A stretch of DNA of 60,459 nucleotides, the filler included, from Dirinaria sp. TL-2023a (Eukaryota), in the NCBI GenBank assembly GCA_051941275.1. It is 8 parts of 8 records of this genome, joined end to end, with 100 filler letters (N's around TTAATTAATTAA, not from the genome) between each part and the next. Parts side by side here need not be neighbours in the genome. Positions count along the whole stretch, not along the records: positions 15,159 to 22,632 come from JAVEBF010001308.1; 7 more parts are not named here. One strand, given 5' to 3'. This document shows, piece by piece, positions 12,939 to 45,434 of the stretch (positions are counted from its first letter, which is position 1; each line of letters opens with the position of its first letter). Position numbers and translations under genes: made by a program. The notes under the pieces were generated by a model, which saw nothing but the letters and a program-made list of their open reading frames with translations, ran no database searches and was not told where the DNA came from.

Positions 12939-14091
12939 ATGACAAGAATTCGGGTACCTGCTTCGACCGCTAATTTAGGTATGTCTTTACACAGCCATTC
13001 TTACTGCACGTCCCAATTGACCGCCGCCTAGGGCCCGGCTTTGACGTTTTTGGGCTTTCATTAAAACCCGCGACTGCTTCTCCAAAATTCAGCATGTGTC
13101 TCGAGCTCCAAATTGAGCTGTTGCCTCAAGGAACTTCGGTGCCGGGAAATTGTGAGATCATATGCGAAGGTGAAGGTGCAGACAATTTCAGCCGTGCTTG
13201 TGACGAGAACTTGGTCACTCAAGTTGCACTATATGTCTTGAGATCTCACGGAATATACGGGTCAGTGAGTCCCTCTGAAGGTGGCCGCAGATTTTGCTCT
13301 ACAGACCCCATGCTGACTCCAAAAATTGCGCCAGCTTCCCATCTGCCACCAGGATACGTATGTACTCTGGGATCCCCTTATCCCGAGGTCTAGGGTCATC
13401 GGCTGCTGCAGTCGTTGCCGGTGTAATGCTGGGCAACGAGATCGGCCATTTGAATCTATCCAAGGACAGGATGTTTGACTACTGCCTCATGGTGGAGCGT
13501 CACCCCGACAACATTGGTGCAGCTTGCTTTGGCGGATTCATTGGCGCGTTCATGAAGATGCAGATACCACCTAGTGAACCTAGTGAGACGCTGTCTAAAA
13601 GCCTGGGTGCCCCGCCTCAGGATATCGGAAGCTATCACCATTTCCGGTTCAATCCCGACATCAAGATAGTAGTTGTTATCCCGGACTTCCATCTCAGTAC
13701 TGTGAACGCGCGAGGGCGCCTCCCCAAGACCTATTCTCGCGAAGACGCGGTATTTAATGCCCAACGCTGCTCTCTGCTCCCCGCTCTCCTCGCCGAAACA
13801 CCTTTGAATCCAGCAAAAATTTCGGAGGCAATGTGCGACCGGCTTCATCAACCATATCGAACAGATTTAGTTCCCGGCTTCAGAAATGTCTTGCAGAATG
13901 TAAAGGCCGACGTATACCCTGGCTTATTAGGGGTCTGTCTGAGCGGCGCCGGTCCCAGCATTTTGGCACTCGCGACAAGTAATCTTGAGCAGATCTCCGA
14001 AGCTATTTGCGCAATATTGAAAGAAGCAAATGATATTCGGTATGATTCGCAGATCCTTCAGCTGGATCCTGATGGAGCGACTACTTGTTGA
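12939..14091 (+). CDS. THR1: Homoserine kinase (GHMP family), 3 exons (introns 12979-13031, 13261-13334); divergent
   Basis: RVPASTANLGPGFDVFG, GHMP loop IPLSRGLGSSAAAVVAG, ERHPDN, DRLHQPYR, CLSGAGPS. Confidence 0.9.
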
Positions 14092-15158: not shown

Positions 15159-15683
15159 ACTTAATCCAATTCAGTCCCTCCGCCTCTTCTGAGGATGATG
15201 ATGAGAAGGAGGTGATTCTGCTTCGGACGAAATTTGAAGGGAAAACGAAGAAGCGGGAGGAGGAGGATAAGACTGAGGCTAAGACTGAGGGTCAGAAGAA
15301 GCAGAAGAGTCTCCTGGCTCCGTGGATGAGGGGCGGGAATGAGGAGTTGAAGAGGAGGTTTCGGGAGAGTGAGAAGGTGAAGAAGGGAGGGGGTGAGGGT
15401 AAGGAGGAGGAGAGCGCGGAGTTGAAGAGGAGGTTTAGGGAGAGTGAGAGGGTGAAGAAGAAGAGAGGAGGGGATGGTAAGGGGGAGGAGAGCGTGGAGT
15501 TGAAGGAAACATCCGAGGAGGAGTTGGAGAGGCAGATTGTAAGTTTTGATTTGATTCCCCCCCCCCAACATGGGTAGATATTTCTAGGAGGATGCAACTG
15601 ATGGGTTCGGTGGCTAGGAGGAATTTGGAAGGAGGGCTGAGAAGCACGGAATTCGATCGAATGCTAAGGGAAAAGAGGGGTAA
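15159..15683 (+). CDS. 3' fragment of an unidentified charged protein, 5'-truncated by the contig edge
   Basis: The frame is open from the contig start to a GTAAGT donor at 15539. CTGAT branch and TAG acceptor at 15617; last exon EEFGRRAEKHGIRSNAKGKEG*. Confidence 0.5.
15344..15506 (+). repeat. Coding tandem repeat, 75/78-bp period (ELKRRFRESE-K/R-VKK...EES x2 plus a partial third)
   Basis: GAGTTGAAG units start at 15344, 15419 and 15497. Confidence 0.85.
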
Positions 15684-16443
15684 GGTATGGGATGCTGGGT
15701 GGGAGAGCAACAGAGGCGTATTGAGTGGGCTTGAGATGTGGATTGGATCATGGAATCAAGCGTGCAGCTTTTTTATGGATCACTTTGAAAGTTGAGACAT
15801 AAGTGACTTGATCATGTATGTTTGCAGCGTGCGATAGTGCGATACCTCGTTATGAGGCTGACAGTTGAATGGTCTTGCAAATCTTCCCTCAGGAGCCAAA
15901 TCAAAGCTGGTTGTAGAGATGGGGAGACCTTGAGAATGGAGATGAGAGAATGATGCTTGGAGATGTGAATGGAAAGAGAAAAGGAAGTGCGTTCACAGGA
16001 GAGCAAGTGAACCAACGAGCCATCAGCGCGGGCCTAGCCATAATCTCATGGCCAAGTAGAACTTGGTGTAAGAAGCCAGGTGTGGAGTGAAGCAGCTTTC
16101 AAGTAGGAGTGAATAACGCGAGTTCTGTGCTACGTTAGCAAAAACCCCATGACTGCCCTTACGCTCGATAGCTTAGGAGTAATTAAGAGCTCACTCACCT
16201 CAGGTGAGCAAAAGAAAGAATGCTCCTGTCTCAGCGGCAGTCAGTAGCAGGCGATGCACTCGGCCAGACTGTCAAAACAGGGCAGGATCATGGAAAGTAA
16301 TGCAGGTCACAAAAATATTGTGAACACAGTTTCACGACTTGCTCGTAGATCTCAAGAGTTTTTTCTACTCCTGGTAGATACTGCCCAATTCTACGTCCTA
16401 ATCCAGCTATGCCAGTTCACTGACCTGCAGCATGTAGAATGGT

Positions 16444-16936
16444 TTAATGGGCCTGTCGAGGTCCCTGCGAGTCGTTCTTCGGTCCTTGACGCTCACCCGC
16501 CTAGGATCAAATGAGCATTAGATATCTCAGTTGCAGGAGAGTACGGGTGATGTCTGACCTCAGTCTCCTGCAGCGTTCCTCGCTCCAGAATCTGGACCAT
16601 ACACTCGTCCTCATTCTTGGTACCGAACTCGTTCTCCAGAGTGGACTTGCTAGGGGCATCGTATGCGTTCTGAGCTCCGTGCCTGTAATCGACAACCGTA
16701 CGTTAGTATCGAATGTCAAATTCAAAGAAGCAGCAGCATTGCGTGGGGATATAGAGTACGCTCGATGCTTACTTATGAGTGACGAAGATTTTGAAGCCGC
16801 TGACAACCTGTGCCAACGGGATTGAGCGGTCGTTCTTCCAGTCCTGCACTGCCTTCACGTCGTCAACAAAGATCACGAAGTCCTCGTCCTTGCCCTGGTA
16901 ATGCATCTTGGACTGGGAAGCGTTTCCACGAGGCAT
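16444..16936 (-). CDS. RTC3: Small SBDS N-terminal-domain protein (Rtc3/YHR087W-like), 3 exons; absent from the ORF track
   Basis: Spliced product MPRGNASQSKMHYQGKDEDFVIFVDDVKAVQDWKNDRSIPLAQVVSGFKIFVTHKHGAQNAYDAPSKSTLENEFGTKNEDECMVQILERGTLQETEAGERQGPKNDSQGPRQAH*. LENEFGT is the family motif. Confidence 0.9.
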
Positions 16937-17298
16937 TTTGGAAAGTTTAGTCAGTTGTTCTTGTAGTAGTAGATATGATGTTCTGGGAGTAGAAAATCAA
17001 TTCAGGTGAAGTTAGGTAGGAGTACTCCGTACAATTGAATACTGCCCTGATCTTTGTGCAATACACACGAGGGGCAGTGTAATGTGTCGGTCCGTTGACC
17101 CGCCTTTGAGGTCACTTTAGACACGTGACCTACTTTATGGATGCATTACACGGTAGTTGTTTCATCTATACAGAGTCACAAGTACCTTCAGAAGTCAATT
17201 CGGGCTTTCAGTGACGCAAGATCACATGGCTCGCTAGGGAAAAAGCTTTTTCGAGTTGGAAAAAGGCACGGTTCGTCCCTGCCACGGAAATTCTAAGT

Positions 17299-19564
17299 CT
17301 ATAATGTCGGAGCCCGCTTCAAGCCTACGCAGTATCTTACGAAGAGGGTATCTAGAAAATGCTCATGTCGTATCCCCGGCGGTCTATGTGCCGCAAACTC
17401 ATCAATCGCTTGTTGAACACCGTAACCCTCTCGTTCAATGAGGTAGCAACACAAGAAGAATCCCGTCCTGTTAAACCCGTAATGACAATGGACCCCTATC
17501 AATGCATCCTCCCTACCTACTTCTCCTAGCTTGGCTCTCAAGCGATCAATGAGCTTGTTGAAATCCCTGGTTTCTTCCGGAGTAGGCGGGATCTTGGACA
17601 CCGTTGGGAATTTGTGGTACTCCATACCCCCTTCGTCCAGATCCTTCGGGTCGTAAACAGGACTCTCGTGGCTGATGTCGACCACAGCCTTGATTTTGTC
17701 TTTCCACTCCCGGACGAAGATGTCCGGGCGATGTGTGCTGTCAATCTGGCGAAGCGTCTTTAATGCGCGGAATATGCCAGCAATAGGTTCTGAAACAGGC
17801 TTGACAGCTTGCCATTTGGCGAGGTTTTTGACATCCCATTTCCCACCGGTTGACAGATGTTGAAGCTGCCACCCAAGCGAAAGTCGGCTATCAACATGGT
17901 CATACAAAAAAGTATGGATCAAGCCAGCTAGCGTGCGATATGTGGTAGGATCATAGAGCAAAGCGTGCGAGGCGGGAGCTGGGAGAATGCTCGTCTTCAC
18001 CACTCGGCCTCGCCTTGAGTACGCCGATGGATCATCGCTCTCCATCGCAGCATCTTTTTCGATATCCTTGATAATTGTTGTTTCGGTGTTGGCTGTGCTG
18101 TGATCCTGCAAGGTGTCTGAACCACCTTTTCCGGGAGCCATTTGAAATCCCTCTTGTGCGGATCTGGCTGCTGCCGTTCCAACTGCGCCATCGGAAACAT
18201 GAGCCTTGTTTGGTTTTGTTGTCTCCCGTATTGCTTCGCTAATCTTTGCAACCTCTTCAGGTCTCGTGATGTTATCCGCTTCGCCGGCGACAAGGAAAAG
18301 CGGTATCTGAAGGCTACCCCAGACCTCTAAAGGCGGAAGACCTTCCGCAGACCCAGGCCCATCTAAGCCCGTTCCAAGTTTAGGCAACATTCCCCAAGCC
18401 ATCCTTCGCCAGACAGCGGTACGGCTTTGTGAATTATACCTCTCTTGCATTTGCTTGGTCTCCGCATCTGCATGCGGGCCAACGAAGCGGGCTACACTAG
18501 AGCTTTCGGGTCCACCCCGCCTATCCCATCTCCGCCACAGATCGAAGATTGGAGTAGGTATACTGAGCAATCGACGTAGAGGCGTCGCCTGCTCACCGGA
18601 GAAAGGGGAAGCCCTTGGGCAGACAGCTACAAGACCTAGGATCTCATAGTTGGTCTCTGTTTTCAGGGCGGAGAGAGGCGATGCTAGCAAGACCGATAAT
18701 GAGCAGCCCATGCTGTGCGCAATGAGTACGACGCCTTGCGCTTGACTCGCCCTGCAATGTACTTCAATGACCTTCCCCAAAAGCTCTGCCAACGCGGCAG
18801 GTGTGTAGTGCTCCCAGGCTGTCGGTTCGTATTTCGATAGCCCACATCCCGGCAAGTCAATGCCTAAACAGGGTGCAACATTGACCAGACTGGTTAGGAG
18901 TGGGTTGAATTGGGCCAGGGAGCCCCCAAGGCCATGCACAAATACTAGAAGTGGCAGTGGAGTAGGCACTGAAGGAAGCTTGCCTGCTTGAGGATGAGGT
19001 CTGTAGAACGTGCGAATACTCGGGTAAGTGCCTGTAGATGTAGTGTAGGACTTGAATGTAGAGTGCTTTTTCAGAAGACCAGGATCAGTGCTCTCTGCGT
19101 CTGTACCGAGTCAGCAACGGACTTGATGGCCATGAAGTGTGGCGGCTACACTCACCGAGACTGCTACTATTGGAGCCATTCAGGACTGAGCGGCGCACGC
19201 TTTTGTGATGGCTTCCGGTCGCCGCATATCTCTCACTTTCTGCTCTCCTCCTCGTTCTCCATATGCCACATGCGCCGATAAGACTGCACAGGGCCATCAG
19301 CTGCACCAAACCCCAACCTCCAACACTATCTTGGATGGCTCGTACATAGCGATGCCGTATCAGCTGCGAAGCAAAGGCACGCACAGAGCGGAGCCAATAT
19401 TCGAGACTCTGGTCCTCACTTTCCGCACTCCTACGAACGACTTTGGTAAGAGGTAGGAATGAGGGTTCAGCCAGCGCACCCACCGTCAGTAGCGAGATAA
19501 GGATCAGGAACAGAAACAGAGACAGACATCGCTGCGTATATGTAGCTTGGCGACGTATTGCCAT
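17299..19564 (-). CDS. Fusion: hydrophobic N-terminal segments + alpha/beta hydrolase + CX5R cysteine phosphatase (RNA 5'-triphosphatase/DUSP11-like); 2 exons
   Basis: Hydrolase motifs VFVHGLGG, GIDLPGCG, AHSMG (18720-18706), AGEAD, ASHAL. Phosphatase loop HCHYGFNRTG (17490-17461). An intron (GTGAGT donor ~19155, CAG acceptor ~19101) joins the N-terminal exon starting MAIRRQ at 19564. Confidence 0.88.
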
Positions 19565-20149
19565 TGCTGACCATCCTCCTGGGATGTTCGAGCGATATGA
19601 ACGAGCCAATGACGAAGGCGCAAAGAGGCAGATGCAGCGTTGTTTGGACACGGGCTTCTAGCGGAAGTGGCTGCGTTAGGACGGCAATTGCCCTCCAAGA
19701 CCCTGATCTTGCTATTGAAAGAGGAATAGGGAGGCTCTTGTCGCTCTCAGAATGTCAAAGTTCGGATACGGTCCGAGACGACCCTGGAATCAATCGTAGT
19801 AGTATGAAGGATGGCGATGCCGCTCTATGATGGCGGCCGATGAATGGCTGCACATGATGAATAATAGTTTCCCGTCGCTCTGGGTCATTTTCCGCAAAGG
19901 GTATGTTCTGTACTCGTACCGCAATAATAGGTCGTAGAAGTTCTCATACCTCCGGAACAACCGTCTTGAAGGCGAATCGTCCTCGGCAAATGACGAACTC
20001 GACGAGAATGACGGGGTTTATCACAATTTCGTCGCCTATTTCAACCTGTTGCGAAAAACTAAACTTACTTTTTACCTCTCTTATTATTCGCCACTTGCCA
20101 ATCATCCCCATCAACAATTTCACCCACTCTACGATTGATCAACTATACA

Positions 20150-20517
20150 ATGTCCTCAGCCACGTCGCATTGAGACCAGTTGTAGGCAAGACGTCCGTCA
20201 CCAATATTTCTGCTCCGGCACATGCCCTACATCAGCTTCTCTCCTTCCGGCTTCGGGACTCACCGCAATTCGCCATTCAGACTACTTTAGATACTACCTT
20301 AGCAACAGTGCACGAGACCATCGTGAGCTCTTCTACTATATCCGCTTCAATCATGTCTCTATAATCGTGAAGAGCTCTCCTTGTCTTCGCTAGTCCTTGT
20401 CGTACTTCATAGTACGAGATTTTGGCCTCCACCTTTGTACCAATACATATCTTCTCTCGAGAGACGTATCTCTAATCCTAAGTTTCTCTTCCGCTTTCAA
20501 TGTCCAACCGTTCGTGA
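20150..20517 (+). promoter_or_regulatory. Four short upstream ORFs and a CCG-N4-CGG site before ILV3
   Basis: uORFs 20150-20173 MSSATSH*, 20222-20290 (22 aa), 20353-20364 MSL*, 20500-20517 MSNRS*; CCGGCTTCGG at 20247-20256. Function is inferred and the TSS is unknown. Confidence 0.5.
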
Positions 20518-20540
20518 AATAGTACGCGACACATAAAGTT

Positions 20541-22541
20541 ATGGATTTATCGAATCTTGAGAAACAAAACTTGCCCGAAGAACCCAGATTCCTTGATTTT
20601 CCTCATCTGCCAGACGATGCCACAACCTCGGATGGCCAGCCGAAGCTTAATAAGTACTCATCAACCATAACTCGGAATCATGACTTTCCCGGTGCTCAGG
20701 TATGGTGGAGCTGCTGTTGTCTGAAGCTGCCAGCTGCTGAAGCTATTGCAGGCAATGCTCTACGCAGCTGGGGTGCCAAGTAGCGATGCCATGAAGAACA
20801 GCCCTCACGTCGGTGTGGCGTCCGTCTGGTGGGAAGGAAACCCATGCAACACGCATTGTGAGTACAATATACCTCTTCAAGCCAAGTCACGTGGCAGACT
20901 TCATTGTTCGAGGTAACTGACCATGGCCAGTACTTCACCTTGGTAAGACTGTCAAGGACGCTGTGATCAAGCAGGGCATGCTGGCCTGGCAATATAATAC
21001 GATTGGGGTATCGGATGCGATTACTATGGGGAATGAAGGTGCGCGAGGAGCCTCCGGCTCCAGCCAGCATATTAATCGTCTCAGGTATGCGCTTTTCGTT
21101 GCAAACGAGAGAGATCATAGCCGACAGTATTGAGACTGTGACCTGCGCTCAGCAGCATGATGCTTGCATTGCGATACCGGGCTGCGACAAAAACATGCCA
21201 GGAACCATCATTGCAATGGCTCGCCACAATAGACCATCATTGATGCTCTACGGAGGATCAATGGCCGTAGGCTTTAGCAAGCTCCTCCGTAAACGGATCA
21301 ATATCTCAACTTGCTACGAAGCTAGCGGCGCCTACATATATAACAGTCTCGTTCAGCCTGACGATGGTGGTGACACCACTAAAAGTAAGGATGAGATCAT
21401 GGACGATATCGAGCAGCATGCTTGTCCAGGGGCTGGTGCTTGCGGAGGCATGTATACAGCTAACACGATGGCCACCGCAATCGAATCAATGGGTCTCACT
21501 CTTCCCGGCTCCTCTTCCACCCCAGCGGAGTCCCCGGCAAAGATGCGGGAATGTGCCAAAGCTGCCGAAGCTATCAGGACCTGCATGGAAAAGAACATCA
21601 AGCCCAGGTCTCTGCTCACAAAACGCTCCTTCGAGAACGCAATGGTCATAATTATGGCTCTAGGTGGTAGCACCAACAGCGTCTTACACTTCCTCGCCAT
21701 AGCGGCCACAGCCGGCGTTTCCCTAACTCTCGACGACTTCCAGCGCGTCAGCGACAAGATCCCTTTCATAGCTGATCTCCAACCCAGCGGCAAATATTAC
21801 ATGACCGACCTGTACGAGATCGGTGGAGTACCCTCGGTCCAGAAGCTCCTTGTCGCGGCCGGCCTGCTTGACGGAGACATACCAACCGTAACAGGGAAAA
21901 CTCTCGCCGAGAACATCGCTTCATACCCATCACTGCCCCAAGATCAAGTCACGATCCGCCCACTTGCGAATCCGATCAAAGCAACGGGGCACATCCAGAT
22001 CCTGCGCGGCAATCTTGCCCCCGGCGGCGCAGTGGCCAAGATAACAGGCAAAGAAGGCACACGATTCACGGGAAAAGCGCGCGTCTTCGACAAGGAAACC
22101 CTGCTGGACCGCGCGCTCACCGCAGGCGAGATCAAACACGGGGAGAACCTGGTGCTCATCGTGCGGTACGAGGGCCCGAAAGGCGGGCCGGGCATGCCGG
22201 AGCAACTGAAAGCGTCTGCCGCCATCATGGGCGCCAAGCTGACCAACGTGGCCCTCGTGACCGACGGCCGCTATTCGGGGGCTAGCCACGGCTTCATCGT
22301 GGGCCACGTCGTCCCCGAGGCTGCGGTCGGGGGCCCCATCGCGGTCGTGAGGGACGGCGATACCATCACCATCGACGCCGAGAAGAACGAGATCCGCATG
22401 GACGATGTGGGCGACGAGGATATTCGCGAGAGGTTGAAGGGGTGGAAACGCCCGACGAGGAATGTGACCAGAGGCGTGCTGGCTAAGTATGAGGCGCTGG
22501 TGGGCGATGCCAGTCATGGTGCCCTTACGGATGATTTCTAG
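20541..22541 (+). CDS. ILV3: Dihydroxy-acid dehydratase, Ilv3B-type paralogue with no mitochondrial presequence; 4 exons (introns 20700-20751, 20858-20930, 21039-21084)
   Basis: [77 protein letters not shown]. The N-terminus [21 protein letters not shown] is acidic. Confidence 0.95.
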
Positions 22542-22632
22542 CCCGAGTATGTCAACGCTGCCAGGGTGGTACTTGCTTCGCGACTGTGTTTTTTAAAAAA
22601 GGGGGGAAGAAAGGGGGAACAGGGGGTTGGGT

Positions 22633-22732: not shown

Positions 22733-24338
22733 TCCACGACCTCTTGTAGCTGGGACCAATTGGCGTAACCCCAACGGCATTGATGGAATCCGAATGTAAA
22801 GTATTGCTGCATGGCTGGGAGGCCAATGGCACTCTTTTGCCAAGCTGTCGTGACATCGGGCTGTGTTGGTCCGGCATAAACATAGAGATCAATACTCCCT
22901 CCTGGACGGTCAGGGAGTCAGCGTAGGTCTTTCTGGCATTACCACAGTATCGTGAACCAAGGTTTACCAGATCCACTGGTGAGATGGATCGTATCGCTCT
23001 TTGGTAGATAGCAAGAAAAGGAAACTTGCAGGAGTGGAACATCACTCACCAAGGAGTCGCCAAGTGATATTCGAGGGTCGCAGCAGTATTTCTTGACCGT
23101 GCGCATTACGATTGTAAATCCCGTGCGAATATGATACATAGTCGGCGGTTGCATTTGTAGTGTTGGAGGTAACCAGCGTCAAATTGCCATCGGAATCGGT
23201 TTCGTAATATCTGGTATCAAGATAGAATGGATGGGACCCATAGATGTTCCTGCATTACATTCAGTGGCGGATTCGAGCCAAGTTGCGCAGATACTGGGAA
23301 ATCATGGAAAATCATGGGTGCTTTTCGTCGCCTGTCTCATAGGGCTCTTCACATACTCATCAATGGGATCGCCAACGTCTGCCGCATAAATTGTCTTCGT
23401 AAAGTTATTCCCCAACCGTAACCCATGGATCGACTCGCCGAGCCCGTAAAGATTGTAGTTCTCCGGTAGCGGACTTGCAAACTCAATGAATTGATTTTCA
23501 AAAATGAGCTTTGTGCCTTCAGTCGAAAATAGGGTGTCACCAGTAGATACTCGGAAAACGGTGAACGAGAATGAGGGCTCATTGCTCCACACGAAGCTCA
23601 GATCACTTTTCAAGCTTGTCATGTTGGCGTCTGAATCCCGTGTAGGTTGATGGACCAAGTGATCCGGCAAGATGTAATAAGATTGATTTGTGCTATCGAT
23701 CAATGCCGGAACGATTCTTATCGAAAGTCGGTCAGCGGACTGGTATTCCACAGTCAGGTTAAGGGTATCGATATCCGTCCCGTATACATTGCAAGCAGGT
23801 CCGGCTAGCGATAGCGTTGCTGACAGTCCATAGGGCGATCGTATAACATTGGACGCGCTATAGCCTGGGCACACTGTCTGCGCATCGACTGCTTGGCTGC
23901 GTAGGAATTTCGTGTTAGCGGTTTTAAACCGGCGCAAAGACAACGGGATGCACTCAAGGGCCTGGAACGTCTTGGACAAGCGTTATGCCGAAGCCCGTCG
24001 AGACAGTAGCTTGATGCTATGGGTGATTGAGGTACTCACGGGTCTACAATATTTGGAATCAAGGCCGCGCCTATGTCCGCTTCTGGCGGTACTGTGAATA
24101 TTGGCCGGAACGTTGACACCGTCCCATTAACAGTTGCAACAGGTGAGCCGGTCATTGAGGGGAGGACAGCTGCCGGCGTGGCTCCAATTGCACTCTGGCT
24201 GCTAGAGCTACCAGCTGCTTCGGTATCAACATCTGGGCTTTGGGCGCAACTGAATTTGGCAAGCTGTAGCATGAGATGGGCGAAAGCATTTGCTGCCGAA
24301 AATGGGGAGCCAAACATCCTGGCTGAGAGGGGCCGCAT
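22733..24338 (-). CDS. GH31 alpha-glucosidase (AgdA-like, probably secreted), N-terminal part only; exons 24338-24040, 23896-23357, 23249-23050, 22901-contig end
   Basis: AVDAQTVCPGY, LAGPACNVYGTDI, YNLYGLGE, NIYGSHPFYLDTRY, GGSIDLYVYAGP, IGLPAMQQYFTFGFHQCRWGY. The start codon (24338 vs 24317) is uncertain. Confidence 0.93.
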
Positions 24339-25622: not shown

Positions 25623-28600
25623 CTACACCCGGTCATCGCCAACTCTTGCCTTGCCACGTCTCCTGAAAAAGTCCATCACCCTTTTCGCGGCCCCGGATGT
25701 TCCTGCATGGTGTCCACCGCCTCCATATCCCGGCTCTGGATCTTGCTCGTAAGCATCTGCAAATTTCCGGTTGCTCTTCGTCAACACCGCGGCGCCGGGT
25801 GCCTTGCGATTCTGTTGCATTGATGATCGCGGCTCGTCTTCGTAGCTGTTGAATCCCTGAGGGTAGATGGGACGACGTTGATTAACCCCAAGAGACACTT
25901 CCGAGTCCGTGGGAGTCCCCGACTCTCCAAGCAGATAGGACTGTCCTTGGGGAGGTCTCAGGGGACTCAGAGGCTCCTGCTGGGTGATGAATGTTGAGTC
26001 ACTGTATTGTAGCTGCTCTGTCTGAGCTCCGCCGTGCGATAACATCCCATTCCTTCCTGTTTGTTGGACGATATCATCGCCCTGGCCGTCGTAACCTGTT
26101 GTGGCACTTTGCTGGTTGCGGTAACTGTTCGACCGGCTCTGCCCCCGGCTGTAAGCCATGGTCTGCGGTCGAGACTGTTCCCGGCTGGGAGGCGCCTGTT
26201 GCATCGTAGAGGGCCTGTGCTCCGAGACCGGCAACGTATTACCGGATCGTTGATCCTTAGCACCACCAGTAAGGCCTTTGAATGAGAACGAAGCTGGAAG
26301 AAGCGAAAACCTCCGAGGCTTTTCCTGACTCGACAGGTCGCTATTCTTCCTTAAATCACTACTTTTTCGACCGAAGCCGAACGATGCCGAGCGGCGAGAC
26401 TCCATAGATTGTCGAGGGCTATCTGAGGAAATGGGCGCCTTCATACTAGTTGGCGGATAGCGTTTTTCGGCTGGCGGCTTCTGCTCTTGGTTCGCCTGTG
26501 ATGATCGGCCAAAGACAGATCCCGATCTACCTAGGAGGTTTCCTAGCGTGTTGGATCGTTTATGCCCTCGCTGGTGGTCTCTTTGTGTTGGTGCAGGGGG
26601 TTCTGGCACGTATTGCTGAGTACTGGGGCGCCCTACTGACTGTTCTGCATAGTACGGCTGTGATTGGGGGATTGGTGCTGATATGTTGTACTGCTTTCCA
26701 TTCTTGGGCTGGGCAAGTCTCCCCTGCGCATTGGTTGCGGCTACAGTTGGAGCAAGCGGCTGGCTGTAGGAGTTTCCACGCGATGGTAATCGAGCTGCTC
26801 CACTGGACATAGAACCGCCGGTTGCTGGCCTGCCCGTCGTTATTGAGGGCAATGGAGCGAAGGCACCAGTCGAGTCTGAAACCGAACGGGGTAAATCTTT
26901 GGGCGGTCTATTGGGCGGCGCCATAGCCTGTTGAGAGTTACTTGGCCGTTGTTGGGTTCGAGTGGAGGAAGTTTGTCCATAGTAAGACTGATCCTGGCGT
27001 TGTGTTTGTGTAGGTGCTAGAGGCTTTTTTGATACCGCAGCTGGCTGTCGTGTGACATTCTCAAGGCCCTCGGTAGCACCTCTAGCACGAGCCTTGGAAG
27101 AGCCTGAGGCTACAGCTGGCGAGGTGCCAACCGCAGAAGGCGAAGAAACTGCAGGTGTTCCCTCACCCCTCACTGTCTGCGATTGAGGCGCAACGTACTC
27201 GACTTGCACAGTTCTTCGCTTCGGGTCGCGCGTGGCCTTCGTCTTCTCAGCCGGTAATTCAGGATCAATCCTACCTTGATGACTCAATCCACCCACTGGA
27301 GACATATTGGCCGGGTTCAACTTCGAAGGCTCTCTAACGGAAGCACTGCGGGCTAGTAAAGGTGCCTCCTGTTGATCTGTTGCTAATATTAGCAAAAGAA
27401 ATGGATATCAGGATGCAGAAGATTAGGGAATAGCGGCCCAAACTGGCTGCAACATTCGTAAAACATACCGGACTTGACGATGGTATTCGCAATCTCACCA
27501 ACAGTTGTACTACTGCTTGTGACATGGGAGACAACATGGGCGTAATCACTCAACCAACTGTGTCTTGCAACTTCGAACAGGTCTGCTCGCTTCCGAGGAT
27601 CAGGCACAAGAATCCTACGGAGTAAATCTCGGGCATGCGGTGTAACGTATTCAGGGAATGTGAGGGGTGTAGAGACTATGTATTTGTAAAGTAAGTTAAT
27701 ATTGTCGCCCTCAGGGTTCGCCGGGTCATCGTCAAATGGAAGGTATCCGGCGAGCATAGCATACTATAGTTTCGTTAGCGAATTCGGCGCACAGAGAATT
27801 CGAAAATACCTACTAAAATGACTCCGCAACTCCATACATCTACCTTCCTGCCCGTGTACAGAGAGTCCGTCACAACCAGCTCCGGTGCCGCATAGCAAGG
27901 ACTACCACAGCTTGTTTGCATGAGATCGCCCTTTCGATGGCCATTTTTAAGTTGGTCCAGACCCATCCTCTTTATAAAATCACGGTTGCCGAGATGGACT
28001 TCGATGTCTTCGCCAAGTTCCTCCCGAGGGTCGAAGGTGTTTGCAAAACCAAAATCCGTAATGATGATGTTTCGATTGCGGTCAAGCAGCAGGTTCTCCA
28101 GCTTGAGATCTCGATGAACGATTCCCTTTTTGTGAAGGTAACCGACTCCAGACACTAATTGAGCGAACAATCGCCTTGCCGAATTGTCCTTCAGATAGCG
28201 CTGGTTCAAGATATAATCAAACAATTCTCCACCAGATGCGTACTCTAGGATAATGCCTATGACCGCCTTTGTTTCGACCATTTCGTGAAGGCGGACAATG
28301 TTAGGATGTGACAATTCCCGAAGGATAGATATTTCTCGGTGTATTTTGGGTAGTCGGCTGGGGTTCGAGCCTAAAGCTTCCAAGCGTATCAATTTGATAG
28401 CCACCTGAACGCTCCCGTCCTTTTTCCAGCCCAGCTTAACTTTGCCGAATTCACCCTCGCCTAAGGTCTGTCCAAGCACATAATCACCGAACTTGGTCTC
28501 CTTTCGTCTGCCTGTGCTTGCCGAATGGTCCTGTCTCCGTTGCACAGAGCCTCCACCGCTGGTGTCGATGCTTACACTTGCAGCAGTATCCAGGCCCGGT

Positions 28601-37868: not shown

Positions 37869-38599
37869 GCCGTAGCCACACGTCGGCTTGACACCCACGC
37901 AACCGCAGTCTTCACAAATCTACAGCCGCGCAACATCCTCCATTACCCTGCCCATAGCCCTCATACCAACCTCATCCCAAACCCCGTACCCCAGTCTACC
38001 AGCCCTTCAAACCGCCTGCAGCACCATACCCTATCCCAATATCAAAATCGAAAAAACCTCCGTATTGAGAGTTTGCCAAGGCCATGAAGAAACTAGTCAT
38101 GTATCAGACCGCACAATAAAGGATGTACAATTTTCATTCTTTCGGATATAGATTGGATAATGATATATGTAGGTAAGAGGAGTGTGAATAGTGGGGTTTT
38201 AAAAGTTGTTGACTGCTGGGCGTAGATGGGCCGCGATGCAAGCGCGTAAATTCGTTCGCGGTCGTAATTTATTTTCTTTAACTATCCTCATTCGAGGAAT
38301 ATATCTAAATATACACTTTTTAAAATGTTGTTACCAGCCTTTACTCCCACAGTCAGATGAAAATATTCGCTGCGCCAATCAATTTATTTGCGCAGCGTGT
38401 ATCCTCCCACTCCCCTCTCCCCATCGGCCGCGTCCTAATGTGCACTAGTCTCGTTGCGCCCGTCTCCGAATATTATCCTGCTTCTCGGTTTCCCACTTCG
38501 ACCTATGGAAGGGGTCAAGCTGGGTTTTCTATACGATTACTAAGTCTCCTTTAAATACTCTCATGTCATGTTATGAGTCGGAGGAAGGGGTGTGTATAG

Positions 38600-41500
38600 G
38601 AAGGGAGACTGAGTTTGGAAATTGAGAATACGGTTAGGGGGACTTGGGGAAAGCTTTCTTATTAATTTGGTTTGTTTTTAATTTCACTAATGGATCTTAG
38701 ATTTTCTATCAATTATTCGATCTGCTTCATGTTGCTGGAGGAGCGATCCTCTTGAGAATTTTATCATTTTTATTCGTTCAGATCTCGTTGTACTTTCTCA
38801 CGAGGTCATTCGTCTTAGATTCTGGACTCGAAGGAAGCCAAATGATTCAATTCTATACATCTCTATATACGTCCTTTGAGCTTCTTCATAGGACAAGTCG
38901 AAGTTTTCTTATTTGCTATCTATCACATACCACTCAAGTGCAGATCTGAAGTGGTGATATAAGGGCTCGCTTTAGGTGTAGTAACCAGAACACCCATTCG
39001 GATTTGTAGACTAGTATCCCAGTCTAAATATCCGAGAAACGCATTATGCTCTTCTAACTAGAATATCGACGTAGACTGCTCAATATCAGAAATCAAAATC
39101 CCTCTCTTTTTCTGGTTTCTGTTTGCGTTCCCCAATGTGTATGGATGGGTTTAGGAAGAAAATATGAGTTCAGCATACGGACGACGCGAAATAGCGCCCT
39201 CGATGAAATTTAGCGTCTCATCAATCAAAAATGGCTGGGTTTGGTCTAATTATCTGACATCAAACAAGTATATTCAGAATTCCAAGTGCATCTATGCAAG
39301 AATGCGCGTGAGGTATCGGGATGATTGAAAAAAAAAAAACTTCAACCGCTATCGCGGCCACGCTTACTTCATGACTGAAATAAGTCGACAAGGTGAGAAT
39401 CTGAGGCTCGATCAGCAGCGTAGAGGGTCGTCAGAGTTGCGGGGGGTTTGTGTGAAGGTTTTTTTTCTGAGGGGCATATTTGGAGAAACTCGTCGAGTTC
39501 TCTCAAGATGTAACCGGATTAAGATAATGAGATAGTTGAGCTATCGAAGTTGAATCGAAATTCACGAACGCCTCAAGAAAATTTCAAAAAGATCAGAGAG
39601 GCGACGACGAGGTGCACGCAAGCGAAAAGAGCGATCTCGATGCTGTAATAGTAATTTAGCGAACATGTTCGAGAAGACAATCACAACTTATGTCAAACAA
39701 CGACAAAATAGAGCACGACAGTCATGAGAGATTGAAGAGAACAGTGAGAATCGACTCACGAGAGCTTCAGGATGCACGCAAATGAGAGAAATGATCTCGA
39801 ATCGGTCCTCTTAGTAACTGTCGGACTTTGACTGAATTTAAATAGGAATGGTGATTAACAGAGACCTCGACATCGAACGTAAAAGCGGAGGTCTCGACGA
39901 GAAACAACCTAGGATTAGAACATGAACAGAGCTTTTCAAAACAACCCAGGGTGCTGAAGCTGTTCAGAACCTCATTGAACTGGAAATTGGTGGCTAGACG
40001 CTCTATTGGATATAGATTCAGCTCAGTCATGGTAGTCAATAGTTAATTAGACAGGTGTCGTAAGAAACGCAAATTGAAAATTCCAAGTGTAAGGGAAAAA
40101 ACATGTTTAGATGCCTCGTCAATGCGTTTAATGATTTATAGTTATGGAAACAGTAGAATTATAGAATGACAGTTGAAAGTAGAAGAGTTCCTGTATAAGA
40201 AAGAGAATAAGTTTGCTCCCAGACTTAATGTTAATCTAGTACCGAAGAAAAGACGTCTTTTGCTACCTCGATCTTATTGTTCACAAGAAATGCATCATCG
40301 AGGAAGAATGTCATATATCCACAATCACTGCATTGTCTCATGAGACTCGAGAGCGATTAGCTTGGAATATTTCATGCAATGGATGCATCAAATATTATAA
40401 TTTAATCGAGACGTGGCATATATAGTGCGTTATATCGACGGGATCAAAAGAATTTGAGTAATAAGATTGAATGCGAGTAGTTGCGAAATAAAGATTTACA
40501 CTTGAATCGAAATATTTATCGTGTCAACTAGAAACGTCGTGAGAAATGCGAAAGACTTTTAACTCAGAATTGATAGTCGCGTGACATAAACTTTGTCGAC
40601 GCCGTCCCATCCAGATTTGGAGGGAAATTTGCTGGAGAATTTGGATAATCCATTCTTCTCACCTTCTTCTATTCGATTTTACACTGTGCGCAACGAGGCG
40701 CTCGAGCTTCTCTGTTTCTTGTTCTTCTAACATCTTGCTTGCCTAGAGGGTAATCAGTCGACAAGATATATTTCAAAACATGACTGAAAACTCGGTTCGC
40801 TCATTCAGATGATCGTTTCCTGATGAGAAGGCGAAACCGGACAGCGTCCAGAGTGCGTCTTTATGTTTTGACGCATATCGTGTCGTGATGGCTTTTGCCA
40901 TCATGCATGTAATGCATTAGAAAAGGGTAAATGCAAATGTCTCAGAAAAGAGTGTCGAACAACTACATGCACCAGAAGTTGCGGGAATAAGGTCGAGCTT
41001 CGCGATAAAAATAACAGCCGCAATGATATTCCTTTGCAGACAACGCACTCGAGCATTAATCAATTTTTGAATCGACATGGAAAAGGCTTGAAGCATCAGG
41101 CTAAGATATCGAAAGATCCAGTACCACTGAGCGCGTTCTGATCTGTTCTTTCGTATGACACCAATGATGGTGGAAATCTAGACACAAAGTTGAAGTATTT
41201 GTTTTCGGTAGACTTACTATCTGTGGACTACCCCTCTCTGACTGGCTCGTTCTGCCCATGTAAGCCTCGATTGAGGAAGGTGCAAATCTTGTTCCTAACA
41301 ACCATTTCCTTCCTAACAGCATCTTTTCCATAACTCACTCGTGTTCAGAGAGCGAAGATATCTCATCGCCATGGGCGAGTACCACTTTTTCGTATCATCA
41401 GCGCCGTCGGGCACTCTTCGTGGATTTGTTAATCATGGAGGTCGCGGTGACGGAGTTCATTTTCGGGGCCTCGAATCCACTGAGGTACTTCGGTACTTGC

Positions 41501-44500
41501 TTCTCTGCCACCTCATCTATATCTCTCACATCAATTCCAGGCTACGTGGCGCTTTTGGAGTTCTTCATTTGTCTCATTTCGAGCTTGACGTTCTTGTAAA
41601 TACGTTTGGGATAGGACAGAGCCCTACAAGTCCAGGTAGGATAGAGCGTTAGATAGACGTCAAAAAGGCACGCAGGGGCATACGGTTTCTGAAGTATAGC
41701 TGTCGTCGAATCTTTGATCGTTGGTCTCAATGTCCTTTTCCTGTCCTGAAGAACCTCACCGCCATTGGACTACTGACGAACCAGTCTTTGTTTGGTTTAA
41801 GCCTGCAGCAACCAAGAAGGCTTCAGATTTTCCCAAATGATCTTCAACAAGCTGTTAAAGAGAGTAAGGGACTGAACGATTGCCATGTGCCCAAATCAAT
41901 GGTTGAATATTTGATAACCTCAAACGTTCTTTGGCATAGAAAGTACCTACTAAAAGAAACGCTGCTAATTGTTCGGGAGCGTCGGATTTGCTTTGCCTAG
42001 AAGTAAAGCTTTGTGCGCAATCAATTTCAGTCATAGCTGTATAACGTCATGGATTCGTCTTTTCTCAAGTTCGAAGAGCATCAATCAAGCGTCTTGTCGT
42101 TCTTTGACAGTGTTACACAAATGCTCTTGAAGACCATGCTACCTATATGGTTCCTGGCTGGTCAATGGTTCCCACTGCTTTCCGGCATTCGCTGGAGTCT
42201 GTCATCCTCAGCCGCCTTGGCTCTGGGGCAGCTATAAGTCGGGATTGCAACAACAGACGCGACGTTTGAAATAGAAAGCGAGATTGAGAGATAATGATGC
42301 AATAACCGTAGATAAGGGGGAAAGAGCCAGAAATGTTTTTACTCTTGACTAATTTGGCCAGAGATTCTTCCCTCTGCTCGTAGTGATCATGCAGCTTGAA
42401 AGATCGTATGTTCTTATTTGTTCGCTAGATCTTCTAGACGAAAATCTGTTCTTCTGTAACACTTCAGTTCGACGTTGTGTGTAGTTTATCTTTTCAGGTT
42501 GTCGAATCTCGACTATCGCTCACATTTGAAATAGAGACTCCGAGAAAGGCTCAAGAAAACGCTTCTGAACATTCTCTATGTTTTTGCACATGTTCGCTTT
42601 GCTGACTTCTCTATTGATTATATTCAACAGTGCCAAATACAATTTTGTGCTTCCCCTGGAATTTATCGGAATTAGCTTATAGAGAAATTATTTTTGAGGC
42701 AGCGCCATTAAGTTTCTCGTATGGCAAGGAATAGAGTCGAGCTTGGTCATAGATGGAGCTATTTCACTACGAGGAGAATTTGAAATTGCTAGATCTCAAA
42801 TCTCGTCAAAATTAATGGTTGATATTGTCTCAGACAAAGCTCAGTCTGGTCAACGATGGTCTGGTCGATCCTCGATACTTCTTTTTCGAAGTTCTGAAGA
42901 ATATTAAGTGTGGAGGCTTTTGTATGTGTTAGGAGACGCAGCGACCAGATCGAGGTACGAACCACACTCTCCCAACTCGGCAGCCTTGATGATCTCCGTA
43001 TGGGCCCAGCATAGATATTAGAGCTCGATAGTGTTGAACCTACTCTTCGCTGATGTACTAAGAGCTTATGTTGTTAGACTGGAAGTTCATTTTGTTTGCT
43101 TTCGTCTTGATTGACGTTACAACACTTGTCGACTCAATTTTAATCATTAAAAGCTTTTTTCGACGATTTAATTTTTTTCTCATCGACATCTTGATTTAAG
43201 TTCGAGATTTTGTGTATATCCGATCTGATATCTCATGTTGTTGCGTGAACGATTCATATCGCTCTTAATAAGAAGACTCATGAGTCTCTTGTTCTTCTCG
43301 GTCCTCGAATCGACTGGCTTCAGAGTCGAGAAAGAACTCATAAGTTCAGCTTATACTGACCAATCCATACGATGAGTGACTGTCGACTTGCTCTTCTACA
43401 ATCCCACTGAGATCTTCCCACCAATTAAATGCGTTTCCCAATCGCCTGCTGACTGAATCTTGCTCGTATAATCAAATATAATAGAGTGATCGATGTTCCC
43501 ACGTCGACCCAATCAGCAAACCCAGGTGCGATACGTATCCACGTCGGCAGGTTACTCGATGAAAACGACGAGTCACAATCCTGAACGGTTCTGTGCTCGA
43601 CCCAACAAACCCATCGTGGTCACTACAATCCGTAAATCGCTGTCTTTCAACATTCTCAGGCGTTTTTTTCGCCACAGCTGCGGTTCTTTGCCCGTGATGA
43701 TATTAAATCCAAGTTCGGACTAGCCAGAAAGATATTAGAAGGCACTATTCGCTGCACGAGAATCAGTTGAATCGTCAAGTTGTTTAACCTCATTTCATAA
43801 TTGATCGAAAAATCGATCTTAAATGTCTTTTTCGTCATTTTGTTTATCAAAGATTTATCTTTTGTGAGTTCGTCTGACAAGAACAAATCAAAAGATGAAA
43901 TGAAAAAAAAAAAAAAAAAAAAAAAAAAATAACGAGAAAAATTTAAAATTTTGTGTTCGGCGATTACTCATTCTTGGGTCCAATGAATTGGATACTTATC
44001 GCACTTTCTCCACTCTCTCAGCGTGATCGTCCGCGATTTTCGAGTGCCTTAGCATACTTATGTCTCGTTATTCAAGGAGCTCGAGCGTTCCAATATTTGA
44101 TTCCTTAAATAAATCATTGGAATATCACGAGAATACTCATCAGCGGTCCCTTTTTTGGTTTTTGACTCTTTAAGTCTATCCTGAACCAGTGGTGTGGAAT
44201 TTGTACTTGGCCTTACCAAGGGGGAAAACTGAAACCAAGAATCAAAACAGCCTTCAAGCATTCTGAAAGGTTCACTCACTGTAGCATTTGCCCATAGATG
44301 ATTGACCAGCGTTGTAAGCTTCTCGATTCATGAAAAATGGTTCTTATGTTATAGAGCTGTTGATTATTGTTTAATTGCAATGCAGCAGTAGAATTATTGT
44401 TCAAAGATCAGTCACAGATGAGATCATTGAAGCAGAGAAGATTTTAGAACAAACGACTGCTTCTGAACCGAACGAAGCATCAGAATATGTTGTAGCGATA

Positions 44501-45334: not shown

Positions 45335-45434
45335 NNNNNNNNNNNNNNNNNNNNNNNNNNNNNNNNNNNNNNNNNNNNTTAATTAATTAANNNNNNNNNN
45401 NNNNNNNNNNNNNNNNNNNNNNNNNNNNNNNNNN
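45335..45434. other. Artificial contig-join linker
   Basis: N44-TTAATTAATTAA-N44. Confidence 0.99.

Follow-up and report, generated by a model that had tools for sequence, protein, structure and literature searches.

The choice between a cysteine-type and a metal-type RNA triphosphatase is the classic line that separates capping in animals or plants from capping in fungi, and it is discussed as an antifungal target. Fungal capping triphosphatases are described in part of PMC4791841 as metal-dependent enzymes of the TTM (Cet1) type, in agreement with what an earlier note on the locus studied here had said of fungal capping. These triphosphate tunnel metalloenzymes are the fungal enzymes for the reaction that RNGTT, the closest relative of the domain described below, performs in animals. 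They have an unrelated fold, a metal-dependent mechanism and no sequence relation to that domain, and are functional analogues only. DUSP11/PIR-1 and BVP are non-capping relatives of the capping triphosphatase that, according to passages of bioRxiv 10.1101/2020.08.03.235143, free triphosphorylated RNA of its gamma and beta phosphates. The RNA-triphosphatase consensus is given in part of PMC5785229 as HCTHGXNRT. Siw14 and the plant and fungal atypical dual-specificity phosphatases (DSPs) are cysteine phosphatases that cleave phosphoanhydrides without a WPD acid, and MCE1, BVP, DUSP11 and Siw14 are named among the PTPs lacking this acid in a section of PMC9038691.

The window is a 60,459-nt stretch of DNA from Dirinaria sp. 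TL-2023a (GCA_051941275.1), in which positions 15,159 to 22,632 come from JAVEBF010001308.1. Translation of this part revealed a single gene of 736 codons at 17299-19564 on the minus strand, with the start ATG at 19564 and the stop TAG at 17301-17299. Its structure is as follows.

19156..19564, minus strand: coding exon 1, residues 1-136 and the first base of codon 137
19101..19155, minus strand: the only intron, 55 nt, GT..AG (GTGAGT...CTGAC...CAG)
17299..19100, minus strand: coding exon 2, residues 137-736 and the stop codon, holding both catalytic domains

Exon 2 comprises 599 codons in an uninterrupted frame, within a stop-to-stop ORF of 603 aa (17299..19110). Exon 1 ends at a donor GT at 19155 and is matched by 35 of about 480 collected proteins at their own N-termini. 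The transcript evidence consists of assembled contigs from one sample of one study and from a related strain rather than the window genome, a lichen fungus about 96% identical to the gene (70 differences in 1851 nt). These contigs span 17250-19699, covering 19156-19699 on the exon 1 side and 17250-19100 on the exon 2 side, and only the 55-nt intron is missing. In all four runs, 19100 is joined to 19156, the 55 skipped bases ending in CT..AC on the plus strand, and no other splice joint was found in the contigs of these runs. The gene is thus real, it is expressed in a close relative, and it encodes one two-enzyme protein. A deposited 692-aa gene model shares its first 73 and last 603 residues with the 736-aa product and splices out the second hydrophobic helix; this model was rejected because that joint does not occur in the RNA contigs and the excised part is conserved in homologues. 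The coordinates proposed in the earlier note proved exact, and the C-terminal string LIGVHCHYGFNRTGFFLCCYLIE...AIDEFAAHRPPGI...FLDTLFVRY and the motifs AHSMG, GEAD and ASH that it had read are all present in the translation. The note had also placed the two domains in one protein; the possibility that they are separate genes is rejected, as both lie in the same ORF and on the same RNA contig.

The C-terminal domain carries the features listed below.

17329..17841, minus strand: cysteine phosphatase domain of the RNGTT/DUSP11/BVP clade by sequence, profile and fold, exon-2 residues 420-590 (full-length 557-727)
17584..17619, minus strand: the stretch Y-H-K-F-P-T-V-S-K-I-P-P at the site of a WPD-type acid loop, exon-2 residues 494-505
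17461..17490, minus strand: P-loop HCHYGFNRTG, with C, Y, G, N, R, T and G invariant in 111 of 111 family sequences and both His in 110
17365..17385, minus strand: RPPGIRH motif, exon-2 residues 572-578, of which RPPGI is common to RNGTT; G575 and H578 invariant in all 111

Judged by sequence, profile and structure scores, with the RNGTT, DUSP11 and BVP sequences standing outside the family tree, this domain is a fourth, separate branch of the RNGTT, DUSP11/PIR-1 and BVP clade. The RNGTT triphosphatase domain (mouse Mce1 1i9s/1i9t, human 2c46, 8p4b) is the best sequence, profile and fold match. The single-sequence search returned the mouse capping-enzyme triphosphatase 1i9s first (6.1e-22), followed by DUSP11 (5.6e-12), BVP (1.3e-11), DUSP23 (3.4e-9) and other PTPs at 2.3e-6 or weaker. 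With a 111-sequence profile, RNGTT scored 2.2e-37 (132 bits), above BVP (1yn9, 100.8 bits) and DUSP11 (4jmj, 100.6 bits), while the next PTP, DUSP23, lay at 52.8 bits, about 48 bits under this group. The structure was predicted with AF2 from an alignment of exon 2 (pLDDT 88, pTM 0.87); a single-sequence AF2 model (pLDDT 34) was discarded. The nine best Foldseek matches are all RNGTT triphosphatase chains, with rmsd values of 2.1-4.7 Å over 163-187 columns and 32-34% identity; chain 2c46_D aligns with an E of 4.7e-12 and an rmsd of 2.2 Å over 172 columns (34% identity), and BVP 1yn9 reaches a TM of 0.88 normalised to the target. These scores agree on a kinship with RNGTT, DUSP11 and BVP rather than with protein or inositol phosphatases, as the earlier note had proposed. 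Siw14-type enzymes, the inositol pyrophosphate phosphatases, are not the closest relatives as judged from the PDB match list only, in which no Siw14-type chain occurs among the 58 single-sequence matches at E <= 1.

A Pfam DSPc match (E 1.5e-11) and a DSP-type fold with a CX5R(S/T) P-loop are present, and database names for homologues are generic ("dual specificity phosphatase catalytic domain", "protein-tyrosine phosphatase"). The Pfam match and these names favor an ordinary dual-specificity protein phosphatase acting on phosphoserine, phosphothreonine or phosphotyrosine in membrane proteins or in its own hydrolase domain. We regard this reading as unlikely: typical DSPs match far more weakly (VH1-type 0.0071-0.14, CDC14 0.0078, DUSP12 0.4) than RNGTT in the same single-sequence search, the acid loop described below lacks the conserved general acid normally needed for protein phosphomonoester hydrolysis, and for DUSP11 the activity on RNA is reported, in part of PMC5785229, to exceed that on phosphoprotein by orders of magnitude.

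The closest solved relative is a capping-enzyme triphosphatase, and the Lachnellula hyalina homologue bears the automatic name "mRNA-capping enzyme", both of which would fit a protein that serves as the triphosphatase for mRNA capping in this fungus. The chance of such a role appears very small. The mRNA_cap_enzyme (guanylyltransferase) domain was not found in the protein by Pfam at E <= 1, nor in the 27 family relatives scanned at E <= 0.001; the best 150 of 1555 representative matches did not extend to RNGTT, DUSP11 or BVP. Whereas RNGTT combines its triphosphatase with a guanylyltransferase, the phosphatase here stands at the C-terminus of a membrane-anchored hydrolase, and membrane anchoring also speaks against capping. 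Since the guanylyltransferase domain is lacking and fungi cap with a Cet1-type enzyme (the TTM-type described in part of PMC4791841), the protein is not a capping enzyme. The Pfam scan revealed no RNA-binding domain in it.

Read from its sequence, the C-terminal domain is a cysteine phosphatase with an intact active site, in which Cys538 (full-length Cys675, codon 17487-17485) is the nucleophile and Arg544 (full-length Arg681) the transition-state residue. The P-loop keeps seven of the nine positions of the RNA-triphosphatase consensus (H, C, G, x, N, R and T), with T-H replaced by H-Y, a change invariant in the fused family. Beyond HCxxGFNRTG and RPPGI, the domain and RNGTT have in common KW/RW, KT, D, Y, Y-x-K and L-F-x-RY, and both lack a general acid. 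The stretch at the acid position aligns with CKGHGECP of RNGTT; K496, S501 and P505 are kept in 111 of 111 sequences and K502 in 110, and these sequences show no acidic (Asp or Glu) consensus at positions 497-505 (F-P-T-V-S-K-I-P-P). His578 (full-length His715), invariant in the family, aligns by a position counted by hand with Arg192 of DUSP11, which part of PMC12058148 proposes as a beta-phosphatase determinant; where RNGTT has Lys after RPPGIY, the fused family has this His. Compared with RNGTT, DUSP11 and BVP, the pocket loops thus differ at the P-loop, in the replacement of GHGEC by VSKIP, one residue shorter, and in that of YKGDY by RHEHF. All three pocket-lining loops are invariant within the fused family, and the pocket motifs hardly change between holozoan protists and Ascomycota. 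Because these family-specific invariant loops differ from those of RNGTT, DUSP11 and BVP, the pocket may have been retuned to another substrate. As the difference extends to all three characterised RNA phosphatases, a non-RNA substrate becomes almost as likely as RNA.

The upstream half of exon 2 encodes a second enzyme.

17887..19062, minus strand: alpha/beta-hydrolase domain by Pfam, AF2 and fold match, exon-2 residues 13-404 (full-length 150-541)
18013..18213, minus strand: low-complexity insertion of low pLDDT between the Asp helix and strand 8, exon-2 residues about 296-362

The domain matches Pfam Abhydrolase_6 with an E of 7.9e-17. In the canonical order of this fold, the oxyanion motif follows strand 3, the nucleophile elbow (small-x-Ser-x-small) strand 5, the acid strand 7 and the His strand 8. 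The AF2 model conforms to this order, each catalytic residue following its canonical strand (E50-54, E121-128, E267-272 and E366-372). The oxyanion motif is HGLGG at exon-2 residues 55-59 (family pattern HGxGG). The nucleophile Ser129 (full-length Ser266, codon 18714-18712) lies within A-H-S-M-G, the acid is Asp275 (full-length Asp412, codon 18276-18274) and the His is His378 (full-length His515, codon 17967-17965). This triad is intact and conserved in the 111-sequence alignment (Ser 106/111, Asp 110/111, His 111/111), bearing out the complete Ser-Asp-His hydrolase that had been noticed earlier. Sequence and model together predict an active esterase or lipase with Ser266-Asp412-His515 as its triad. 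Its cap carries an Arg/Ser-rich motif, with R189, D192, G195, G196, S199, S201 and R204 at a conservation of at least 90%. The insertion has a pLDDT below 50 at residues 304-334 and 10-residue-block means of 46-63 over 301-360, and no conserved columns were found in it in the family alignment.

The best 50 matches in the VIA fold comparison are all to the hydrolase domain, led by the esterase 4uhe (Z 29.4, rmsd 2.3 Å over 268 residues). Small-cap carboxylesterases, aryl esterases and monoacylglycerol lipases (4uhe, 1va4, 8ptq) and PlaF (6i8w) align with Z 26-29 and rmsd values of 2.3-3.1 Å over 257-271 residues, at 11-21% identity among the matches listed. They share the triad and the HGxGG oxyanion motif with the Dirinaria hydrolase, which differs from them in its family-specific conserved cap motif, its disordered insertion of about 70 residues and its fusion to a phosphatase.

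Two hydrophobic segments precede the catalytic domains.

19469..19525, minus strand: hydrophobic segment 1, residues 14-32, Kyte-Doolittle 19-residue peak 2.67
19262..19318, minus strand: hydrophobic segment 2, residues 83-101, followed by RTRRR, Kyte-Doolittle peak 1.69

Both segments, which the earlier note had noticed, were recovered by Kyte-Doolittle 19-residue windows at a threshold of at least 1.6, the windows beginning at residues 8-21 for the first and at 81, 83 and 84 for the second. Segment 1 is flanked by an Arg-rich stretch upstream and ALA/EP downstream. Its sequence is poorly conserved among homologues, its hydrophobic character is retained, and one RNA contig of the relative carries a 6-nt in-frame deletion in it. 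It is probably a signal peptide or signal anchor. The segment 2 motif is kept in the five Lecanoromycete homologues compared, and this segment is likely a transmembrane helix that places the catalytic domains on the cytosolic side, a topology read from hydropathy and charge rules only. Among 28 named family members, 16 have an N-terminal hydrophobic segment by the same measure (KD19 >= 1.6) and 12 fall below the threshold, their gene models being unverified. Complex prediction of the hydrolase half (residues 1-404) against the phosphatase half (405-599) gave scores of 0.21, 0.32 and 0.11 against a mark of 0.34, with no controls or family alignment, and so weighs neither for nor against contact; the only hint of packing between the domains is the pTM of 0.87 of the whole-chain AF2 model.

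One of the two domains could be non-catalytic, with the hydrolase serving as a mere lipid or membrane binder or the phosphatase as a substrate trap. This idea has no direct support, and the fusion alone is no proof that both domains are active. It seems very improbable since, from fungi to holozoans, 106-111 of 111 sequences retain the catalytic residues of both sites, a conservation not expected for a pseudoenzyme.

Our preferred reading, held tentatively and below even confidence, is that the protein is a non-capping phosphatase for phosphoanhydrides, tethered to a membrane on its cytosolic side and joined to a serine esterase, for which homology points to 5'-triphosphorylated RNA as the likeliest substrate class. 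The earlier note had likewise proposed a non-capping RNA or polyphosphate phosphatase coupled to an esterase. We infer its topology, chemistry and substrate as follows. The N-terminal signal or anchor segment and one transmembrane helix would tether the protein to an internal membrane, with both catalytic domains in the cytosol. Cys675 would attack the outermost phosphate of a phosphoanhydride, at either a 5'-triphosphate or a diphosphate end, held by Arg681 and the P-loop amides, and the resulting Cys-phosphate intermediate would then be hydrolysed. With a phosphate as the leaving group, a general acid would be dispensable. By analogy, the mechanism is most likely that of the RNGTT, DUSP11/PIR-1 and BVP enzymes. 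Candidate substrates would be 5'-triphosphorylated RNA ends close to the membrane, for example products of RdRP, of viruses or of Pol III, and the esterase might act on a linked anionic ester or else place or regulate the phosphatase at the membrane.

An RNA enzyme would not usually be fused to a lipase-like domain and a membrane anchor, an arrangement that fits a lipid at least as well; DUSP11/PIR-1 and BVP, by contrast, are stand-alone soluble, nuclear or viral proteins. The same phosphoanhydride chemistry could act on a pyrophosphate or polyphosphate in or close to the membrane, for instance diacylglycerol pyrophosphate, an isoprenoid or dolichyl diphosphate, an inositol pyrophosphate, polyphosphate or a nucleotide; the esterase would then attack the acyl portion of that lipid or carry out the following step in the pathway. 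Such a substrate is a serious contender, only a little less probable in our view than RNA. Along with the anchor and the invariant pocket loops unlike those of RNGTT, DUSP11 and BVP, it is favored by the hydrolase fold, which matches the membrane phospholipase A PlaF (6i8w) with Z 26.4 and human monoglyceride lipase with Z 26.1, and by the 111-sequence profile match to ABHD6 (2.7e-15). The Arg/Ser-rich cap would suit a phosphorylated ligand. An architectural precedent exists in soluble epoxide hydrolase (EPHX2), which likewise holds an alpha/beta hydrolase and a phosphatase in one polypeptide and whose hydrolase half matches the profile at about 4e-13. Its phosphatase is N-terminal, of the HAD type, and acts as a lipid phosphatase. 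EPHX2 differs in being soluble and in having Asp rather than Ser as the nucleophile, and the likeness is one of architecture by analogy only. Against a non-RNA substrate, about 170 residues align with the RNGTT triphosphatase at 32-34% identity, which is much for enzymes that differ in substrate class, and lipid phosphatases of the PTP superfamily match far more weakly (PTEN 0.075). To our knowledge, every characterised member of the RNGTT/DUSP11/BVP clade acts on RNA 5' ends, BVP also on NTPs, which likewise counts against it.

The hydrolase-phosphatase fusion was found in Ascomycota, Mucoromycota, Glomeromycota, chytrids, Blastocladiomycota and three holozoan protists, Capsaspora among them, so that it is not restricted to fungi, a point absent from the earlier note. 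In the family tree, its inheritance looks vertical. When the phosphatase domain alone served as the query for homologues, most matches were pieces of this fused family from short contigs. An orthologue, PODANS_7_7360, exists in the laboratory fungus Podospora anserina. Literature searches found no paper or functional study on the fusion, and the earlier note knew of no functional study either. It is unmentioned in the main texts of a Cryptococcus phosphatome paper (PMC7445287), an oomycete phosphatome paper (PMC10925823) and a Fusarium lipase screen (PMC10269793).

A fuller version of the RNA reading, possible but more doubtful than the substrate class taken by itself, would make this an opisthokont enzyme that predates the split of fungi and holozoans. 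It would work on the cytosolic face of an endomembrane and strip the 5'-triphosphate from RNAs that arise at or pass this site, such as viral replicase, RdRP or Pol III products, as a fungal counterpart of DUSP11/PIR-1 that marks them for 5'-3' decay or small-RNA pathways. The esterase would then have as its target a lipid or ester-linked partner belonging with that substrate or compartment.

Many fungi and protist relatives of animals carry a conserved cysteine-type triphosphatase-like domain fused to an esterase and a membrane anchor. Since both active sites are intact across the sampled range, from holozoan protists to Ascomycota, these findings suggest a specific reaction whose substrate is either 5'-triphosphorylated RNA or a lipid or metabolite that bears a pyrophosphate. 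A lipid would, as far as we know, be the first non-RNA substrate in the RNGTT/DUSP11/BVP clade. If the substrate is RNA, the protein would add a DUSP11-like layer of RNA 5'-end control in fungi, bearing on virus restriction, RNAi input and Pol III transcripts. Should the endomembrane RNA reading be true, fungi, the textbook lineage "without" a cysteine-type RNA triphosphatase, would have retained the domain for a non-capping job.

The source of the window is a lichen-forming ascomycete, Dirinaria being a member of the Lecanoromycetes. The coding frame starts at an ATG at 19564 (−) and reaches a GTGAGT donor at 19155. Next comes a 55 nt intron (19155–19101, −), its branch site CTGAC and its acceptor CAG, after which the frame is unbroken down to a TAG at 17301–17299 (−), giving 736 codons in total. 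The ATG and stop coincide exactly with the limits 17299..19564 proposed in an earlier note made from the sequence alone, and each sequence string cited there was found in the translation. Exon 2 is a stop-to-stop ORF of 603 codons holding both catalytic domains, an α/β hydrolase and a cysteine phosphatase. Because both lie in this single uninterrupted ORF, their fusion in one protein, as claimed in that note, is independent of any splice prediction.

One lichen-metagenome sample from one study supplied four RNA-seq runs, whose assembled contigs are approximately 96% identical to the window (70 differences in 1851 nt) and span 17250–19100 and 19156–19699. In all four runs the contigs link 19100 to 19156 and leave out precisely the 55 bases predicted as intron, and the ends of this joint (CT..AC on the + strand) read GT..AG on the − strand. 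No other joint was seen in the locus contigs of these four runs from the one sample. The spliced form therefore exists as RNA in a close relative, the contigs of this single sample reporting presence rather than abundance. The deposited 692-residue protein for the same locus matches the 736-residue model exactly over its initial 73 and final 603 residues; its splicing (window 19101–19350) drops the conserved second hydrophobic helix, and the joint is not supported by the RNA contigs. In 35 homologues the N-terminus aligns to exon 1, and several of them cover the stretch cut from the deposited protein. The RNA contigs and the homologues favor the 736-residue model.

The neighboring genes show no evident link to the fusion gene:

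16769–16996, probably to about 16500, − strand: small gene with an SBDS_N domain (PF01172, 1.6e-13), directly downstream of the fusion gene on the same strand and likely split by an intron
20967–22541, + strand: dihydroxy-acid dehydratase gene (ILVD_EDD_N 1.2e-98, ILV_EDD_C 6.1e-67), divergent and upstream of the fusion gene, its first exon probably farther upstream
13279–14091, + strand: ORF of the GHMP kinase family (GHMP_kinases_N 1.2e-14, GHMP_kinases_C 8e-06)

The open frames 25623–27407 (−, 594 codons) and 23302–23982 (−, 226 codons) gave no Pfam match at E ≤ 0.001. The stretch 38001–46000 has a G+C content of 0.37–0.42, compared with about 0.50–0.53 in most of the window, and could be repeat-rich or RIP-like.

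The hydrolase domain matches Abhydrolase_6 (7.9e-17) and Abhydrolase_1 (1.8e-13) in Pfam. An AF2 model, based on an alignment of 111 sequences, reached a mean pLDDT of 88 and a pTM of 0.87, with low confidence only in loop 304–334 and the final seven residues. In exon-2 numbering, strand 50–54 leads to HGLGG, strand 121–128 to A-H-S129-M-G, strand 267–272 to Asp275, and strand 366–372 to His378 (Ser266, Asp412, and His515 of the full-length protein), and the order of the catalytic elements in the model is canonical for the fold. The best VIA-align match is a Thermogutta esterase (Z 29.4, rmsd 2.3 Å, 268 residues), followed at Z 26–28 by aryl esterases, haloperoxidases, monoglyceride lipase, and the membrane phospholipase A PlaF. 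Among solved sequences, the profile lies nearest to generic ones: designed esterases, lipase 4opm, ABHD6 (2.7e-15), epoxide-hydrolase ABH domains, and PME-1. The triad is conserved in 106 (Ser129), 110 (Asp275), and 111 (His378) of the 111 sequences. The helical cap carries an Arg/Ser-rich motif (R189, D192, G195, G196, S199, S201, R204), each residue at least 90% conserved, and a disordered insertion of ~70 residues separates the Asp helix from strand 8.

For the phosphatase domain, a single-sequence search of solved structures placed the capping-enzyme (RNGTT) RNA triphosphatase domain first (mouse 6.1e-22, human 1.2e-21), followed by DUSP11 (5.6e-12), the baculovirus phosphatase BVP (1.3e-11), and DUSP23 (3.4e-9), with other PTPs at 2.3e-6 or weaker. 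The family profile scored RNGTT at 2.2e-37 (132 bits), BVP at 100.8 bits, and DUSP11 at 100.6 bits, with a gap before DUSP23 at 52.8 bits. RNGTT triphosphatase chains take all of the top nine Foldseek places (E 2e-12 to 5e-11, rmsd 2.1–4.7 Å, 163–187 columns, 32–34% identity), and BVP gave a TM of 0.88 normalized to the target. The capping-enzyme-like homology proposed earlier is borne out, as none of the three rankings clusters the domain with protein or inositol phosphatases; action as a protein phosphatase is unlikely. Judged by homology, the domain is a member of the RNGTT/DUSP11/BVP clade and an orthologue of neither RNGTT nor DUSP11/BVP, and we treat it as a putative fourth branch. The Pfam scan detected no guanylyltransferase domain in the protein, and a role in capping is highly improbable.

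Printed alignments show features common to RNGTT: the N-terminal K/R-W, K-T, the D and Y of the central strands, Y-x-K, the P-loop frame HCxxGFNRTG, RPPGI, and L-F-x-R-Y. Other pocket features are family-specific, and invariant or nearly so over the 111 sequences. The P-loop has His-Tyr in place of the Thr-His of the RNA-triphosphatase consensus HCTHGXNRT, as given in PMC5785229, and retains seven of its nine positions. The K-G-H-G-E-C-P loop of RNGTT is replaced by T-V-S-K-I-P-P, which is one residue shorter and contains no conserved acid; PMC9038691 lists MCE1 (RNGTT), BVP, DUSP11, and Siw14 as PTPs without a WPD general acid. RPPGI is followed by (R/K)-His-x-His-Phe, in which His578 (full-length His715) aligns, by a hand-counted position, with Arg192 of DUSP11; RNGTT has Lys at this position. 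According to PMC12058148, Arg192 is proposed to confer the β-phosphatase activity lacking in capping enzymes. Nine distant named fusion members have essentially the same pocket motifs and hydrolase triad. This is one expressed gene with two intact, conserved active sites and a phosphatase of known clade; that one domain is a pseudoenzyme is very unlikely.

Like its relatives, the phosphatase would need no general acid and would remove the terminal phosphate of a phosphoanhydride by way of a Cys675-phosphate intermediate. Since, to our knowledge, all characterized members of the RNGTT/DUSP11/BVP clade act on RNA 5′ ends, 5′-ppp RNA ranks first, tentatively, among the candidate substrates. A lipid or other pyrophosphate is nearly as likely, in view of the retuned pocket loops, the lipase-like partner domain, the anionic-looking cap motif, and the membrane anchor.

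Residues 14–32 (full-length numbering) form a strongly hydrophobic segment (KD19 up to 2.67) with three Arg before it and A-L-A/E-P after it. One contig from the related lichen sample lacks six bases at window 19516, an in-frame two-codon difference in this segment. Residues 83–101 are moderately hydrophobic (KD19 1.69), kept in relatives, and followed by R-T-R-R-R. Following the positive-inside rule, the C-terminal 635 residues, including both active sites, are predicted to face the cytosol. An N-terminal segment with KD19 of at least 1.6 occurs in 16 of 28 named relatives, the gene models of the others being unverified.

Searched with the phosphatase domain, a set of 1.84 billion cluster representatives returned 1555 matches at E ≤ 1e-3, including 100 at ≤ 1e-30. 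Among the best 150 of these 1555, phmmer found the hydrolase domain as well in 99; short fragments make up many of the other 51. Fusion carriers in Ascomycota include many Lecanoromycetes, Podospora, Cladorrhinum, Lachnellula, Venturia, Sporormia, Trichodelitschia, three Orbiliomycetes, and four Saccharomycotina (Ascoidea, Candida boidinii, Dipodascopsis, Limtongia). Other fungal carriers are five Mucoromycota genera, Diversispora, the chytrids Synchytrium and Fimicolochytrium, and the Blastocladiomycota Blastocladiella, Catenaria, and Sorochytrium. Non-fungal carriers are Capsaspora owczarzaki (Filasterea), Chromosphaera perkinsii, and a EukProt entry labelled Clim_evm, which we take to be Corallochytrium limacisporum. 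The names found include no animal, choanoflagellate, basidiomycete, Saccharomyces, or Schizosaccharomyces; the searches were not set up as tests of absence. Among relatives lacking the fusion, the nearest are oomycete proteins (Aphanomyces, Achlya, Thraustotheca, Lagenidium) with two or three tandem RNGTT-like phosphatase domains and no hydrolase, one with a weak leucine-rich-repeat match, together with a short Spongospora protein. Separately, the ESM Atlas contains a Bacillota cluster of ~608-residue proteins combining an α/β hydrolase with Y_phosphatase3 (score 0.83, a lead only), possibly an analogous fusion.

Database names are generic: 'hypothetical' (including the 100%-identical entry, from a Dirinaria sp. 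metagenome-assembled genome), 'dual specificity phosphatase catalytic domain', 'Alpha/Beta hydrolase protein', 'pimeloyl-ACP methyl ester carboxylesterase/protein-tyrosine phosphatase', 'triacylglycerol lipase', and once 'mRNA-capping enzyme'. Full-text literature searches and the main texts of three systematic screens yielded no study of the fusion family. On these grounds, we rate the fusion as a new architecture of a known clade. In a quick maximum-likelihood tree computed for 30 named members, with group labels that we assigned, Holozoa (SH-aLRT 100), Ascomycota (100), Mucoromycota (99), and Blastocladiomycota (99) each form a clade. This topology is consistent with vertical descent and with a fusion that would be older than the fungus–holozoan split. 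What we rate as new is the ancient, conserved architecture and its family-specific pocket, set within a known catalytic clade.
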